Shown here one piece after another: positions 1 through 5,114 of a stretch of DNA of 5,114 nt. Position 1 is the first letter of the stretch, and each line of letters begins with the position of its first letter. The position numbers and the translations under genes were made by a program. This DNA comes from a virus. Its lineage: Duplodnaviria; Heunggongvirae; Uroviricota; Caudoviricetes. The stretch is from IMG/VR virus record IMGVR_UViG_2778261527_000009, positions 1-5,114 of that record; one strand, 5' to 3'. The notes under the pieces are model-generated. The model searched no databases and was not told the DNA's origin. It saw only the letters and a program-made list of their open reading frames with translations.

Positions 1-450
1 TGCTGCATGCTCCTGCAGCTTCGAAATTGAGAGATACAGCTCGTCGTTAATTGCTGTCTTCTCATGCGGTTCCACCACACCGTCTTCGATTGCCGAACGA
101 ATCTGTCTGGAATAACTGCCAATCTGTTCAATGACTTCCAGCAGGCGCTGGTTAATATCGGCGTTGTCCACATCCTCGACGTCAGGAAGAGACACAAAGA
201 CGCCATTTGCAGACTGCGCCACAGCGTCAGCAATGAAGTGAGTTCCACCAGCACGTTGCAAAATCATTGCCCATCCCAGCGGGAAAATCTGATCGCCATC
301 GGCACGAAGGCGGTTAAATAATGCGTTTTCTGTTACATCCAGCCAGTCAGCTGCTTCAGCGTAACCACCCGGCAACGCTGCGATAGTTTTTCTGACAGCT
401 TTCACGTACCACTCAGGCTGTTTTTCTACTTTCCAGTGATGCTTACCCAC
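1..450 (-). CDS. CII-like / YdaT-like lysogeny regulator, partial (3' end runs off the window start); GTG start
   Basis: Minus-strand frame is open from GTG (plus 448-450) to position 1 with no stop (150 codons, hand-translated: VGKHHWKVEKQPEWYVKAVRKTIAALPGGYAEAADWLDVTENALFNRLRADGDQIFPLGW...ISKLQEHAA). Strong SD AGGAGG (plus 457-462, 6 nt spacer). Sits immediately downstream of the cro-like gene, the position held by cII/ydaT in lambdoid prophages. Not in the ORF track because it lacks an in-window stop. Family assignment is from memory of CII(CP76)/YdaT-like proteins, not a search. Confidence 0.5.
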   Translation of the reverse strand, partial: MGKHHWKVEKQPEWYVKAVRKTIAALPGGYAEAADWLDVTENALFNRLRADGDQIFPLGWAMILQRAGGTHFIADAVAQSANGVFVSLPDVEDVDNADINQRLLEVIEQIGSYSRQIRSAIEDGVVEPHEKTAINDELYLSISKLQEHAA

Positions 451-703
451 GGTTCACCTCCTGTTCCTGTGGTTTAAACCCATTCTGGTTTTGGCTAGAT
501 TGAAAACGTGCCGGATAAAGAATCTGCATTTCGCTGACTTCACCCTTAAAAAAATTGGCTAAACGTTCTGCAAGCTCGATAGATGGAATCTGCTCCAGCC
601 TCTCAATACGACTCAACGTCGCTGGATTGACTTGAACACCCGCAGCAACATGCTGCAAAGTGAAACCATGCGCCTTACGCACATTTCGTAATGGTGATTG
701 CAT
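443..703 (-). CDS. Cro-like HTH (XRE family) transcriptional regulator
   Basis: 86-aa ORF, divergent from the repressor gene. The N-terminal segment GFTLQHVAAGVQVNPATLSRIERLEQIPS has the look of an XRE/Cro-type helix-turn-helix. SD GGAGG is 4 nt upstream of the ATG on the minus strand (plus 706-711). Confidence 0.8.
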   Translation of the reverse strand: MQSPLRNVRKAHGFTLQHVAAGVQVNPATLSRIERLEQIPSIELAERLANFFKGEVSEMQILYPARFQSSQNQNGFKPQEQEVNRG

Positions 704-800
704 ACGCCCTCCAAATATTGCGCGTTATGCATGTTATTTCACGCAATTATTTTGCGCAAGTTGATTTGCTTATCACGCAATAAAGAAATGTAATAAACGC
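704..800. promoter_or_regulatory. Divergent cI/cro operator-promoter region (OR-like) with three operator-like 15-mers
   Basis: 97-bp intergenic region between divergent cro-like and cI-like starts. Three sites fit TTGC-N7-GCAA: 718-732 (reverse orientation, ATGCATAACGCGCAA), 733-747 (TGTTATTTCACGCAA, weaker left half) and 767-781 (TTGCTTATCACGCAA). A perfect 8-bp palindrome TTGCGCAA lies at 752-759. Putative cI promoter: -35 TTGCTT 767-772, -10 TGTAAT 789-794. Putative cro promoter on the minus strand around 731-759. Confidence 0.55.
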
Positions 801-1493
801 ATGAACATAGGAAACCGAGTCAGACAACTTCGCCAAGCGAAGAACATGAAAATCGCCGATCTCGCTGAAGCAATAGGAGTAGATGCGGCGAACATCTCGC
901 GCTTAGAAACGGGTAAGCAAAAACAATTTACCGAACAAACACTGAGTAATATTGCCAAGAGCTTAGGTGTTGATATTGCTGATCTCTTTACCTCTGCCCA
1001 CAAAAGTAATACTGTATATAAAAACAGTAATGATGAGGATGTTGCGCAGGTGAAGGATGTGTTCCGTATTGAAATGCTGGATATCAGTGCCAGTGCGGGA
1101 AATGGCCTTATCCAGGGCGGTGATGTCATTGATGTGATTCATGCCATCGAATACAGAACTGATAATGCTGTATCAATGTTCGGCGGACGACCAGCCAATC
1201 ACATCAAAGTTATCAACGTTCGTGGGGACAGTATGTGTCCAACCATTGAGCCAGGAGATCTCATCTTCGTTGATGTCAGCATCAATCAGTTTGATGGTGA
1301 TGGTATATATGTCTTTGGTTTTGATGACAAAATATACGTTAAAAGACTTCAAATGATTCCTGACAAACTGCTGGTGATTTCTGATAACCAGATTTACCGT
1401 GAATGGGGAATTACTAGCGAAAACGAACACCGATTCATGGTCTTTGGAAAGGTCTTAATCAGTCAGTCGCAAACCCTTAAGAGACATAATTAA
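801..1493 (+). CDS. CI-like phage repressor (N-terminal HTH_XRE, C-terminal S24 LexA-like autopeptidase domain)
   Basis: 230 aa. N-terminal HTH (KIADLAEAIGVDAANISRLETG). Ala99-Gly100 is a candidate cleavage site. Ser144 in GDSM and Lys181 in VKRL are 37 residues apart, the same Ser-Lys spacing as LexA. No SD precedes the ATG, consistent with a leaderless PRM-type transcript. Confidence 0.9.
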   Translation: MNIGNRVRQLRQAKNMKIADLAEAIGVDAANISRLETGKQKQFTEQTLSNIAKSLGVDIADLFTSAHKSNTVYKNSNDEDVAQVKDVFRIEMLDISASAGNGLIQGGDVIDVIHAIEYRTDNAVSMFGGRPANHIKVINVRGDSMCPTIEPGDLIFVDVSINQFDGDGIYVFGFDDKIYVKRLQMIPDKLLVISDNQIYREWGITSENEHRFMVFGKVLISQSQTLKRHN

Positions 1494-1511
1494 CCTCAAT
1501 ATCCTTCCATC

Positions 1512-1536
1512 GGCCACCGAAAGGTGGCTTTTTATT
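1512..1536 (+). terminator. Rho-independent terminator downstream of cI
   Basis: GGCCACC (1512-1518), GAAA tetraloop (1519-1522), GGTGGC (1523-1528), followed by TTTTTATT. Lies 19 nt after the cI stop. Confidence 0.8.
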
Positions 1537-1546
1537 ACCTATCAAT

Positions 1547-1597
1547 TTGCATATCCCGCAAATATCACTTGCATATCTCGCAATTTAATTTTATCTT
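1547..1597 (+). promoter_or_regulatory. OL/PL-like element: two operator-like 15-mers overlapping a putative rightward promoter
   Basis: Direct repeats TTGCATATCCCGCAA (1547-1561) and TTGCATATCTCGCAA (1569-1583), 22 bp centre to centre, matching the 15-mer family seen between cI and cro. Putative -35 TTGCAT (1569-1574), 17-bp spacer, -10 TATCTT (1592-1597). Confidence 0.45.
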
Positions 1598-1744
1598 TTG
1601 TTCCAGACCAACTACAGGATTACAACAAAATCTGGTTGCAACACGGTGCATGTGTCGTAAGCAGTCAGTAAATGTCAAAAACGAACAGGCAGGACGCCCA
1701 CGAAGTAGCCGCCTGGGGCATATGAAGTCCAGGATGATTCGTTA

Positions 1745-1772
1745 GCAACAAAAAAGCGCCCTACAGGACGCT
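1745..1772 (-). terminator. Rho-independent terminator for leftward transcripts
   Basis: On the minus strand: 7-bp stem AGCGTCC/GGGCGCT (one G-U pair), loop TGTA, then TTTTTGTTGC. On the plus strand the same hairpin has a C-A mismatch and no clean U-tract, so it is better formed on the minus strand. Confidence 0.5.
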
Positions 1773-1774
1773 TA

Positions 1775-1786
1775 GCTCTTTAACAA
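1775..1786 (+). promoter_or_regulatory. boxA-like antitermination element (rrn/nut type), immediately after a hairpin
   Basis: GCTCTTTAACAA (1775-1786) is an exact match to the E. coli rrn boxA core (NusB/NusE binding sequence). It lies in the leader between the PL-like promoter and the first downstream gene and is preceded by the hairpin at 1755-1772, the boxB-then-boxA order of rrn leaders. Confidence 0.4.
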
Positions 1787-1831
1787 TCTGGTCCCCATCA
1801 ACAAGTAACTGATAACTTGAGGAGGTGTGAA

Positions 1832-2038
1832 ATGCACAAAACAGAACCCAAAATCGTCGCGCCCGGATACACAAATGAGGAAATTTACGAGTGGATGGCA
1901 AAGAAGCTGGCAGCTATAAACCAGCTTCGTGAAGTGCTGTCTTATCGACAGGAAATAATAGACTCCTTAAAAAAACTGGATCAGGAAATCACGGTTTTAT
2001 CACAGGATGTTACTTTAGATATTGTGCAGACAAATTAG
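1832..2038 (+). CDS. Hypothetical small protein (68 aa), moron-like
   Basis: ATG at 1832 preceded by a strong SD GAGGAGG (1819-1825, 6-nt spacer). The track's TTG at 1817 is unlikely to be the real start. AT-rich relative to flanks. Product MHKTEPKIVAPGYTNEEIYEWMAKK...; no family recognised. Confidence 0.55.
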   Translation: MHKTEPKIVAPGYTNEEIYEWMAKKLAAINQLREVLSYRQEIIDSLKKLDQEITVLSQDVTLDIVQTN

Positions 2039-2444
2039 GATCCCATTCATTTTCGTCAAAATCATCAAAGTGATGAATTTGTGATCTCCAGTCTCGATAA
2101 TCTAAAAATTTCTGGGCGGTTACGCTTATTTTATCAAGTGTGAGTTCATCCTGAATTGAAAGAAGAAGTTCATCAAATTTCATCTCATTAATCTGTTTTG
2201 GCATCCAGTGATGCTTCATCAGAATAAGGTGAACCAGAGCCTTTTTCCCATTCAACTGATTATAGGGAGTGCCGAATTTCTTCCGGTGCTCATGTAAGAC
2301 AAGGTCCAGAAGAGTAAGTAATGTTGCCCTTGATTCGACTTTGCTTATTTCGACTGATGACACTACCCCACTGATTTCAATGCCCCGATACTTTCCAACA
2401 TTTTCACAGTGGGATTTGTACAGCGTGTAGATATTACCGGACAT
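2010..2444 (-). CDS. Hypothetical protein (144 aa), convergent with and overlapping the 68-aa gene; candidate moron/exclusion gene
   Basis: 144-aa ORF with a mixed, protein-like composition. Weak SD (AAGGAAA) about 6 nt upstream of the ATG on the minus strand. AT-rich. Overlaps the 3' end of the 68-aa gene by 29 nt. No family recognised from memory. Confidence 0.6.
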   Translation of the reverse strand: MSGNIYTLYKSHCENVGKYRGIEISGVVSSVEISKVESRATLLTLLDLVLHEHRKKFGTPYNQLNGKKALVHLILMKHHWMPKQINEMKFDELLLSIQDELTLDKISVTAQKFLDYRDWRSQIHHFDDFDENEWDPNLSAQYLK

Positions 2445-2459
2445 TTCTTTTCCTTTTGC

Positions 2460-2511
2460 GTTGTTGGGGATAACCAGATTAACCGAATCCTTGTTGTTGG
2501 GGAATAACCAG
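2460..2511. repeat. Two near-identical direct repeats (18/19 bp) upstream of the 144-aa gene
   Basis: GTTGTTGGGGATAACCAG (2460-2477) and GTTGTTGGGGAATAACCAG (2493-2511), identical apart from one inserted A, 33 bp apart. They lie 16-67 nt upstream of the minus-strand ATG at 2444. Confidence 0.6.
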
Positions 2512-2805
2512 GTCCACCTCGCCTGATGTGGCTAAAAGCAGGCACATAACAGCTAAGTATTTTCAACCAGAGAGAATCCTTAGCGTTGTGGTGAATGCGG
2601 CTCAGCGCACGCGGGTTAAGGTTGAGGCTGACAGTCGACCTTCTGTGGATACCCACCCGCCTGGTGTGCAACCTTCGCCAGGCACCGGGAGGCACCCGGC
2701 ACCACAACTTTATGCTGTGTGTAGTCCTGGCGGTACCAGTTTGTACCCTTGCTTCCGGCTGGCATCCCCGCACCACTGAAACGACTTCTTCCTGACTATA
2801 AACGG

Positions 2806-3066
2806 ATGGAAGAAAAAATAGACGCCGTAATCCGTGAGAAATACGGGTTACCTCCTGTTATGAGCACGCCAGTGAAATATGCCGATCTCATTATGCTGGC
2901 AACCGAACGCCGCGATCTCGGGCTTGATGATGGCTCTTTCTGGCCTGTGCTGGAAGGTATCCCGGCAACAGAGATGTTCAACGTGATTCCACTGGCTCCA
3001 GGCCATGCCTACGGGATGTTTATGGAACGCTTTAACGAATTATCGGAGTTACGCAAATGCGCATGA
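2806..3066 (+). CDS. HD-domain phosphohydrolase C-terminal remnant (YfdR/YfbR-like), N-terminally truncated; possibly a pseudogene
   Basis: The frame is open from 2725 (stop at 2722-2724) to the stop at 3064-3066. The product contains TPVKY and ADLIMLATERRDL, resembling the C-terminal half of YfbR/YfdR-type 5'-deoxynucleotidases, but no H...HD metal-binding motif is encoded upstream in any frame. First in-frame ATG is 2806 (weak SD); the track's TTG at 2749 is an alternative. Confidence 0.45.
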   Translation: MEEKIDAVIREKYGLPPVMSTPVKYADLIMLATERRDLGLDDGSFWPVLEGIPATEMFNVIPLAPGHAYGMFMERFNELSELRKCA

Positions 3067-3419
3067 ATGTTTTCGAAATGGAAGGGTTTCTTCGTGGGAG
3101 ATGTGTACCGCGAGATCTGAAAGTGAATGAAACGGATGCTGAATACCTAGTGCGTAAATTCGATGCGCTTGAAGCTAAATGTGCAGCACAGGAAAACAAA
3201 GTAATACCAGTGTCAACTGAACTGCCACCAGCAAATGAAAGTGTTTTGTTATTCGATGCTAACGGAGAAGGCTGGCTAATTGGCTGGCGTTCTCTCTGGT
3301 ACACCTGGGGACAAAAAGAAACCGGAGAATGGCAGTGGACATTTCAGGTCGGGGACCTTGAAAACGTCAATATCACTCACTGGGCAGTAATGCCAAAAGC
3401 ACCGGAGGCTGGAGCATAA
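3057..3419 (+). CDS. DUF551-like phage early protein (120 aa; resembles the CPS-53 YfdS class)
   Basis: 120-aa ORF, SD GGAG (3044-3047). Start overlaps the upstream stop (ATG 3057, upstream TGA 3064-3066). Trp-rich C-terminus (WLIGWRSLWYTWGQKETGEWQW) typical of DUF551 proteins in lambdoid early regions. Resemblance is from memory, not a search. Confidence 0.7.
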   Translation: MRMNVFEMEGFLRGRCVPRDLKVNETDAEYLVRKFDALEAKCAAQENKVIPVSTELPPANESVLLFDANGEGWLIGWRSLWYTWGQKETGEWQWTFQVGDLENVNITHWAVMPKAPEAGA

Positions 3420-3724
3420 TGACCACTTTTACCGACAAAGAACTGATTAAAGAAATTAAAGAGCGTATCAGCAGCCTTGACGTGCGAGACGATATTGAGC
3501 GCCGTGCTTATGAAATCGCACTCCTATCTCTGGAAGTAGAACCAGATGAACGCGAAGCTTATGAATTATTCATGGAAAAGCGTTTTGGTGACTTAGTAGA
3601 TCGTCGGAGAGCAAAAAACGGCGATAACGAATACATGGCATGGAATATGACTCTCGGTTGGATCGTCTGGCAGCAACGAGCTGGTATCCATTTCTCAACA
3701 ATCTCACAGCAAGAGGTGAAATAA
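3419..3724 (+). CDS. Hypothetical phage early protein (101 aa; resembles the CPS-53 YfdT class)
   Basis: 101-aa ORF with TAATG stop/start overlap with the upstream gene at 3417-3421. SD GGAG at 3411-3414. Confidence 0.65.
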   Translation: MTTFTDKELIKEIKERISSLDVRDDIERRAYEIALLSLEVEPDEREAYELFMEKRFGDLVDRRRAKNGDNEYMAWNMTLGWIVWQQRAGIHFSTISQQEVK

Positions 3725-4074
3725 TGGAGCCATACAGCCTCACACTCGATGAGGCCTGTCATTTTCTCAAGATATCCAGACCGACTGCCATTAACTGGAT
3801 ACGCACAGGGCGTCTTCAGGCAACACGCAAAGATCCCACTAAGAATAAATCTCCTTACCTCACAACACGACAAGCCTGCATTGCGGCTCTTCAGTCTCCG
3901 CTGCATACTGTCCAGGTGAGCGCGGGTGATGGCATAACAGAGGAAAGAAAATGTCACTCTTCCGCAGAGGTGAAATATGGTACGCCAGTTTCACATTGCC
4001 GAACGGTAAAAGATTTAAACAGTCTCTTGGAACAAAGGACAAAAGGCAGGCGACAGAACTCCATGACAAGCTAA
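3724..4074 (+). CDS. xis: Excisionase (Xis), HTH DNA-binding, P22-type
   Basis: 116 aa starting [31 protein letters not shown], an excisionase-type HTH. TAATG overlap with the upstream gene at 3722-3726. Lies directly upstream of int and overlaps it. Length matches P22 Xis as I recall it. The track's longer ORF from 3640 is an in-frame upstream extension. Confidence 0.8.
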
Positions 4075-5114
4075 AGGCTGAAGCATGGCGGGTCAGCAAA
4101 CTTGGTGAAATACCTGATATAACGTTCGAGGAAGCGTGTGTCAGGTGGCTTGAAGAGAAAGCACATAAAAAATCACTGGACGATGACAAAAGCCGGATCG
4201 GATTCTGGCTTCAACATTTCGCAGGAATGCAACTAAGAGACATTACTGAATCAAAAATTTATTCAGCAATGCAGAAAATGACGAACCGGCGTCATGAGGA
4301 AAACTGGAAACTCAGGGCAGAAGCATGCAGAAAAAAAGGGAAACCTGTTCCAGAATACACGCCAAAACCAGCGTCCGTTGCAACGAAGGCTACGCATCTT
4401 TCATTTATAAAGGCCCTACTAAGAGCCGCAGAGCGTGAATGGAAAATGCTGGATAAGGCACCAATTATTAAAGTGCCTCAACCAAAGAATAAACGGATCC
4501 GCTGGCTGGAGCCCCATGAAGCACAAAGGCTGATTGATGAATGTCCGGAGCCATTAAAGTCTGTTGTTGAATTTGCACTGGCAACAGGCTTAAGACGCTC
4601 GAACATCATCAACCTTGAATGGCAACAAATAGATATGCAGCGCCGGGTGGCATGGATAAACCCGGAAGAGAGTAAATCAAACCGCGCAATTGGCGTTGCG
4701 CTGAATGATACTGCATGTCGCGTATTGAAAAAACAAATCGGGAATCATCACCGTTGGGTATTTGTGTACAAGGAAAGCTGTACCAAACCAGACGGAACGA
4801 AAGCGCCAACAGTAAGGAAGATGCGGTATGACGCAAACACAGCCTGGAAAGCGGCGCTGAGACGGGCTGGTATTGATGATTTCAGATTTCACGACTTGAG
4901 ACACACCTGGGCAAGTTGGCTGGTTCAAGCCGGAGTCCCGTTGTCAGTGTTACAGGAAATGGGAGGCTGGGAGTCTATCGAAATGGTTCGTCGATATGCT
5001 CACCTTGCACCTAATCACCTTACCGAACACGCACGGCAAATAGACTCGATCCTGAACCCATCGGTCCCAAATTTGTCCCAGTTAAAAAATAAGGAAGGTA
5101 CAAATGATGTGTAA
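3951..5114 (+). CDS. int: Tyrosine site-specific integrase, P22 Int-like
   Basis: 387 aa with SD AGGA (3941-3944). C-terminal catalytic signature [11 protein letters not shown] ... VRRYAHL (box II His/Arg and the Tyr nucleophile). The N-terminus [46 protein letters not shown] closely matches phage P22 Int as remembered. Confidence 0.95.

Follow-up and report, generated by a model that had tools for sequence, protein, structure and literature searches.

In phage lambda the genes cI and cro diverge, with dyad operators for a self-cleaving S24 repressor between them, and the cI maintenance promoter gives a leaderless mRNA. Beyond cI, on the same strand, a second operator cluster covers a promoter for the early-left operon that ends in xis and int. 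Operators are 14 base pairs (bp) long in 434 and 18 bp in P22. Here we analyse a locus that appears to share the layout of lambda in these respects. It lies in a viral sequence of 5114 bases (IMG/VR record IMGVR_UViG_2778261527_000009, positions 1 to 5,114), and we call this whole stretch the window. In the window, 15-bp dyads of the form TTGC-N7-GCAA occur both between cro and cI and downstream of cI. Very probably they are, at both places, the operators of the prophage's own CI-type repressor (230 amino acids, with a 434-type helix-turn-helix (HTH) and an S24 self-cleaving domain). We name the two places the right (OR) and left (OL) operator regions after lambda. A sequence-only reading had proposed this OR plus OL arrangement. 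Comparison with related phages supports it by conservation, specificity and linkage, but OR consists of two strong sites 48 bp apart and not of three adjacent ones.

The 5114 bases come from a lambdoid prophage and cover its immunity and early-left region. Up to base 1743 they share 99% identity with Shigella phage SfII. In the matching stretch, the SfII record annotates cII, cro, cI and a terminator, and neither operators nor promoters. Two divergent genes, separated by 97 nucleotides (nt), and one terminator frame the dyads:

443-703, minus strand: cro-like gene, 86 amino acids, HTH_3 (Pfam HTH_3, E=5e-10; 'Cro repressor' in the SfII annotation).
801-1493, plus strand: cI-like repressor gene, 230 amino acids, N-terminal HTH_3 and S24 autoprotease (Pfam Peptidase_S24, 6e-19, and HTH_3, 1e-11; PHROG 'CI-like repressor').
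1512-1534, plus strand: intrinsic terminator of cI, GGCCACC-GAAA-GGTGGC followed by a T run (terminator scan; annotated in SfII).

Four strong sites, one weaker candidate and one conserved block make up the operator regions. No strand is assigned to them:

718-732: OR-left operator TTGCGCGTTATGCAT, 18.1 bits, spanning -10/+1 of the putative cro promoter PR.
766-780: OR-right operator TTGCTTATCACGCAA, exact TTGC-N7-GCAA, 18.3 bits, spanning the -35 and spacer of the putative cI maintenance promoter PRM.
1547-1561: OL1 operator TTGCATATCCCGCAA, exact TTGC-N7-GCAA, 15.7 bits, upstream of the -35 of the putative early-left promoter PL.
1569-1583: OL2 operator TTGCATATCTCGCAA, exact TTGC-N7-GCAA, 19.1 bits, the top match in the window, spanning the PL -35 and spacer.
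668-682: candidate weak operator aTGCGCCTTACGCAc inside the 5' coding part of cro, 11.7 bits, the fifth-best match in the window.
752-761: block TTGCGCAAGT, two operator half-sites without a spacer, including the PR -35, conservation 1.00 in 11 relatives.

The exact pattern TTGC-N7-GCAA occurs three times in the window. Base composition predicts 0.07 copies and a first-order Markov model 0.19, and three or more copies were reached in only 2 of 2000 simulations. All three copies fall inside 224 nt of regulatory DNA. In a scan of every 4+4 inverted dyad with spacers of 0-12, only TTGC-N7-GCAA has at least three copies in regulatory DNA. If one mismatch is allowed, the bare pattern shows no enrichment (6 found against 3.9 expected). 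Hence the case is carried by the exact copies, by where they lie and by how they are conserved.

We scored the sites with a symmetrised weight matrix, trained on 40 distinct sites from relatives only, with window-like loci excluded. In the window, the matrix ranks the four strong sites first (15.7-19.1 bits), then 668-682, and nothing else exceeds 4.8 bits. Applied to the complete SfII genome of 41.5 kb, it again puts these four first (17.7-18.9 bits) and the site inside cro fifth (11.0), and the next match has 8.7. A single 18-bit match is within the null range for 41 kb (the 95th percentile of the maximum is 20.3). Four matches of at least 15.7 bits, however, cluster in two stretches of at most 65 bp beside cI, and OL begins only 54 nt from the cI stop.

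Five sites had been claimed from the sequence alone. Four of them are the strong sites above, although one was placed a base too far to the right (767-781 instead of 766-780). The fifth, at 733-747, fails. It scores -37 bits there and -3.9 bits at 732-746 (TGTTATTTCACGCAA), the position that corrects a second one-base shift, and positions 736-746 are conserved at 0.62 compared to a background of 0.68. The stated agreement of the best copies, 12-14 of 15 positions, holds. On the reverse strand, 718-732 reads ATGCATAACGCGCAA and matches the consensus of the sequence-only reading at 13 of 15 positions.

To describe conservation we used two sets. The footprint set contains 11 relatives with repressors that are 66-92% identical (from Escherichia, Salmonella ST64B, Klebsiella, Citrobacter phiNP, Trabulsiella, Buttiauxella and others). 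The repressor family set contains 21 loci with 66-100% amino-acid identity. In the footprint set, column conservation is 0.98 in the operator arms, 0.70 in the operator centres and 0.68 in the remaining intergenic region. Two elements reach 1.00, the block TTGCGCAAGT and the hexamer TGTAAT (789-794). The dyad arms are at fixed positions in all 11 relatives: OR-left and OR-right are always 48 bp apart, and OR-right always sits at -35 from the cI ATG. The OL pair begins 49-57 nt past the cI stop, with its sites 22-24 bp apart, and is preceded by a hairpin and T-run terminator whose stem sequence varies.

Conservation of the 15-mers together with the repressor had been set beforehand as the test on which the proposal could fail. 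The proposal passes this test: the dyad is kept both upstream and downstream of cI in 20 of the 21 family loci. Downstream of cI, 19 loci have two sites, one has a single site and one has none.

The downstream pair also travels with cI. In about 90 loci with a near-identical cI, homology to the window stops at about 1652, 1743, 1790 or 2762. These mosaic breakpoints are always to the right of the downstream pair and never between cI and the OL pair. Therefore the pair belongs to the immunity module.

The most informative comparison is between phages with different repressors. We gathered 197 loci by anchoring on a conserved leader RNA that lies beyond OL (1679-1745 in the window), and found many different S24 repressors at the cI position. 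The anchor gave far greater diversity than a genome scan with a single protein, which gave only 8 loci. A dyad was accepted if it was present at most 150 nt upstream of the repressor gene and also between the repressor stop codon and the RNA. At least seven repressor types carry their own dyad at both places, in the same layout:

The window's repressor family: TTGC-N7-GCAA, both places.
e14 YmfK: TGTAC-N7-GTACA, both places.
A 208-amino-acid repressor type: CTAAG-N4-CTTAG, both places.
A 434-like repressor: ACAG-N6-CTGT, both places.
A P22-c2-like repressor: TAAG-N4-CTTA, both places.
Other repressor types: GTTT-N8-AAAC and TAAAC-N5-GTTTA, both places.

A distance of 48-50 bp between the outer OR sites is common to nearly all repressor types. 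The dyads of the 434-like and P22-c2-like types resemble the operator patterns of 434 (ACAA-N6-TTGT) and P22, which provides some validation of the scan. Of all the computational evidence, we regard this covariation of dyad and repressor type as the strongest sign that the dyads are the repressor's operators and that phages of this group are generally built with both OR and OL.

If the dyads are operators, they should lie on promoters. The promoters that we propose are the following:

730-758, minus strand: putative PR, -35 TTGCGC (758-753), 17-bp spacer, -10 TAACAT (735-730); the -10 is conserved at 0.94, the -35 is invariant, and the consensus match is 7/12.
766-794, plus strand: putative PRM, -35 TTGCTT (766-771), 17-bp spacer, -10 TGTAAT (789-794), the latter invariant in 11 relatives.
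1569-1597, plus strand: putative PL, -35 TTGCAT (1569-1574), 17-bp spacer, -10 TATCTT (1592-1597); a TAnnnT -10 is conserved in the relatives, and the consensus match is 7/12.

As the sequence-only reading suggested, the downstream pair does overlap a plausible -35, namely TTGCAT at 1569-1574 in its second site. TGTAAT ends 6-7 nt ahead of the cI ATG and a Shine-Dalgarno sequence is not visible. This spacing suggests that PRM transcripts may start at about 801, the A of the ATG, and that the cI mRNA may be leaderless, as from lambda PRM. In e14 of Escherichia coli K-12, the position equivalent to PL holds an 11/12 sigma-70 promoter (TTGACA-16-CATAAT), with the e14 dyads in the spacer and at +1.

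With these assignments, a simple scheme would describe the switch. In the lysogen, CI dimers on OR-left would cover -10/+1 of the leftward cro promoter PR. CI dimers on OL2 would cover the -35 of the rightward PL, which would begin 54-100 nt beyond the cI stop, just past the cI terminator. OL1, 22 bp upstream of OL2, would probably aid cooperatively. OR-right, over the -35 of the cI maintenance promoter, would impose negative autoregulation. DNA damage would lead to RecA-stimulated cleavage of CI at Ala99-Gly100 and so release both early promoters. Transcription from PL would then run through the structured leader RNA and boxA into small early-left genes, xis and int. The repressor has the hallmarks of self-cleavage. 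Its motifs GDSM (Ser) and VKRL (Lys) align with the serine and lysine motifs of UmuD, and the translation reads Ser-Ala-Gly at residues 98-100, the putative self-cleavage site. A sequence search of PDB with CI returns remote relatives only, namely ClgR, UmuD, SinR and the 434 repressor (434 at E=0.008).

Several points weigh against this interpretation. Promoters are one of them: a consensus sigma-70 scan of 400-2100 finds none, and the hexamers that the operators overlap at PR, PL and the maintenance promoter match the consensus at only 7-8/12, so that their assignment rests on conservation and on the e14 promoter. We hold the exact hexamers and the signs of regulation with lower confidence than the operators themselves. 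The middle of OR is another. Window candidates for an equivalent of OR2 score -5.5 to -0.9 bits, and none is credible. OR-right poses a third difficulty: it is as strong as the other sites and yet lies on the PRM -35, unlike lambda OR3, which is a weak site, and this makes sustained cI expression puzzling. Furthermore, BLASTP does not align the CI N-terminal domain with Cro. Finally, neither binding nor expression data on the repressor turned up in the full-text literature, in a search that did not extend to older papers on ST64B and SfV.

The three adjacent graded operators of lambda are not found in the window, where each region has only two sites of at least 15 bits. In relatives the block TTGCGCAAGT is the right arm of a weak middle site at -56, which scores 10-12.5 bits. 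In the window the counterpart of this site scores -5.5 bits and only the half-site block remains. The block may be left over as one arm of that operator, or it may be bound by another protein, for instance Cro. An everted repeat, CGCAA-N5-TTGCG (742-756), and two further middle candidates (745-759 and 752-766) were rejected as sites, as all score below 0 bits in the window. The candidate inside cro is 50 bp from OR-left, at position -133 from the cI ATG, and scores 16-18.6 bits in the relatives; coding constraint on Cro residues 8-12 is a confounder. Together with the strong sites it gives positions -133, -83 and -35, a spacing of about 50 bp.

Downstream of PL the window holds two further elements of the putative transcript:

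1679-1745, plus strand: structured leader RNA, 67 nt, in the 5' part of the putative PL transcript (covariation; covariance model 93.6 bits).
1754-1786, plus strand: hairpin (1754-1773) followed by the boxA core GCTCTTTAACAA (1775-1786), an exact rrn-type core with 0.05 expected.

The leader RNA was aligned in 30 versions. The alignment supports three plus-strand helices, namely a closing stem and two hairpins, one of them small and invariant and the other with a loop of 12 nt. In the alignment 96.9% of cells pair, and 9 of the 15 pairs show compensatory changes. None of 500 shuffles reaches the observed value, and slid controls pair at 41% or less. One version (L059) has, by eye, a G·U pair that fits a plus-strand RNA. 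A segment of 25 nt, CAGGCAGGAcGCCCACGAAGUAGCC, is nearly invariant, which in part reflects the retrieval of the loci with an exact pattern that spans it. Single-sequence folding of 1604-1800 is uninformative (z = -0.1).

The leader RNA is present in 50 GenBank phage records, including SfII, SfIV, SfV, ST64B, phiNP, Yersinia YeP1/YeP3 and Pectobacterium ZF40, and in e14. It follows the OL/PL region in many phages of other immunity types, with one copy per phage according to the covariance model. Neither the 50 records nor e14 have an RNA feature annotated over it, no Rfam family matches it, and our literature search found neither a paper with its sequence nor a description of the RNA. The hairpin, which had been scored as a minus-strand terminator, and boxA form a module that occurs only in a subset of the leader-RNA phages, with a mosaic junction at about 1743.

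A role of the leader RNA in processive antitermination is a reasonable hypothesis, because SfII is without N in a published comparison (PMC3851460) and because HK022, a lambdoid phage also without N, has a put RNA that is alike in size (about 70 nt) and position (just downstream of PL; PMC9378689). Homology to put is rejected by the covariance model, which finds no match in 15 kb of HK022 covering PL and PR. A more far-reaching proposal combines this RNA with the layout of OR. PL would feed an undescribed 67-nt leader RNA, and then boxA, instead of N and nut, and the RNA could be a put-like or a Nus-dependent processive antiterminator. At the same time, the switch logic would be unlike the three-site cooperative switch of lambda, with strong sites about 48-50 bp apart at -133, -83 and -35 and the invariant half-site block between the last two. 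We consider this combination possible but doubtful.

How well do other explanations of the dyads survive? The downstream pair (1547-1583) could bind CI and yet control no promoter. As a mere auxiliary operator it could form a loop with OR, about 800 bp distant, and so tighten PR repression or PRM autoregulation, or it could be a roadblock behind the cI terminator. Looping between OL and OR is established in lambda, and in our phages the OR-OL distance of about 780-800 bp is fixed because the length of cI is fixed; a consensus-grade promoter is also not found at the downstream pair in the window. However, the relatives conserve a TAnnnT -10 after OL2 at 17-bp spacing, and the 11/12 promoter of e14 is at the equivalent position. 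In more than 100 phages, moreover, the conserved structured RNA starts on the same strand a few to about 75 nt further downstream, which implies a transcription start. Looping and promoter control are compatible with each other in any case. We judge a pair that controls no promoter to be unlikely.

A protein other than CI might bind the dyads, for example only the Cro-like or the YmfL/CII-like protein. Cro is also an HTH_3 protein and travels with cI, the invariant block TTGCGCAAGT may serve a second protein, and the literature turned up no binding data. But in many phages a different S24 repressor type goes with a different dyad, and symmetric dyads of 14-17 bp at PR and PL are the classic CI pattern. 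A YmfL-like gene, in turn, is annotated beside both the repressor type of the window and the unrelated one of e14. An exclusive non-CI user has, in our view, very little chance of being correct. CI as the binding protein would leave room for a second user. As in lambda, Cro may use the same sites, since cro co-varies with cI too. The link from the proteins themselves is that the Pfam register, and only this, puts Ser-Arg-(Ile/Leu)-Glu in the recognition helices of both CI and Cro.

That the two regions resemble each other by chance, or as a relic of local duplication without function, is effectively refuted by the comparative data: the lack of one-mismatch enrichment and the null range of a lone match would allow it, but the strong matches cluster beside cI, across genera only the arms are conserved while centres and flanks vary, and other immunity types have the same geometry with different dyads.

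Beyond the operator regions the window contains a gene to the left of cro, and xis and int at its right end:

1-450, minus strand: YmfL/CII-like gene (open reading frame (ORF) list, Pfam/PHROG).
3724-3957, plus strand: excisionase, 78 amino acids, HTH_17 (Pfam HTH_17, 8e-9; PHROG excisionase, 3e-32).
3951-5114, plus strand: tyrosine integrase, 387 amino acids (Pfam Phage_integrase, 3e-48; int in the SfII annotation).

The idea that the repressed downstream promoter leads to xis and int needs to be qualified. The route from a promoter in the 1590s passes the structured leader RNA, boxA, an opposite-strand gene and a deletion scar. Between cI and xis lie small early-left ORFs, the opposite-strand gene (2010-2444) and a truncated yfdR-like gene. 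The opposite-strand gene (ECs1072 family, PHROG 5286, function unknown) breaks up the plus-strand early-left operon. Its 3' end overlaps the ORF at 1832-2038 by 29 nt, and it looks like a moron insertion. The scar is at about 2762-3066: compared to E. coli PSJ-07 the window is without about 1.76 kb (yfdP, yfdQ and the 5' part of yfdR), and the ORF at 2809-3066 encodes only the C-terminal 85 amino acids of a YfdR-like 5'-deoxynucleotidase.

Two other observations concern this part of the window. The plus-strand stretch 2563-2748 has a sub-threshold Rfam match to the small RNA family STnc100 (35.6 bits at a gathering score of 47, E=3.5e-5) and is 87% identical to ST64B between sb38 and sb37. In the SfII record xis is a 435-nt ORF (3640-4074 in the window) that overlaps int by more than 100 nt. 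The HTH_17 and PHROG excisionase match fits the shorter 78-amino-acid ORF at 3724-3957, with a 7-nt overlap with int.

This immunity region is common. Positions 440-1800 are covered to at least 80% in 1039 of 5426 complete E. coli genomes, and the immunity type also occurs in the Shigella serotype-converting phage SfII, in Stx2 phages, in Salmonella ST64B and in Citrobacter and Klebsiella phages. In the searchable literature we found no published description of operators for this immunity type, with the ST64B and SfV genome papers outside reach, and the records we examined do not annotate them. We regard the finding as a correct recognition of the OR/OL operator family in an ordinary lambdoid immunity region, and within the lambdoid paradigm this is conceptually unsurprising. 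Knowing the operators would make it possible to predict superinfection immunity among these prophages, give induction reporters defined targets and supply a parts list (repressor and 15-bp operator) orthogonal to the lambda, 434 and P22 systems. More useful are two by-products, the catalogue of repressors and dyads and the conserved PL leader RNA.

The outer OR sites of the window are 48 bp apart, and in lambda OR1 and OR3 are separated by about 47 bp. The operator has 15 bp (TTGC-N7-GCAA) where lambda has 17 bp, and each region carries two strong sites instead of three graded ones, with the middle of OR reduced to the invariant half-site block. The DNA-binding domain of the repressor is of the 434/XRE HTH_3 type. 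There is no rexAB between cI and OL, where the window has only 54 nt and the terminator. The window has the extra candidate site inside cro, and instead of an N gene it has the structured leader RNA and boxA.

With 434 and P22 the window shares the HTH fold family and a similar dyad length, and close variants of their operators were recovered in phages with the layout of the window. The half-site TTGCG of the window is different. So is the spacing, since 434-like loci have three OR sites 22-23 bp apart, whereas the family of the window has two strong sites 48 bp apart. The put RNA of HK022 resembles the leader RNA in size and position. HK022, however, has both putL and putR where our phages have one copy each, and the architecture is not the same: in the window a closing stem and a small invariant hairpin are combined with 14 nt of invariant single strand and a second hairpin, whose loop has 12 nt.

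The prophage e14 of E. coli K-12 (cryptic, with the repressor YmfK/CohE and with YmfT/CroE) shares the overall plan of the window. The DNA-binding domain of its repressor is unrelated, as only the S24 part aligns, and it has its own dyad, TGTAC-N7-GTACA, and a near-consensus PL. The order of elements is the same as in the window: a cro-like gene, OR, an S24 repressor, a terminator, an operator pair with a promoter, the same 67-nt leader RNA, early-left genes, xis and int, with an integrase of the same type.

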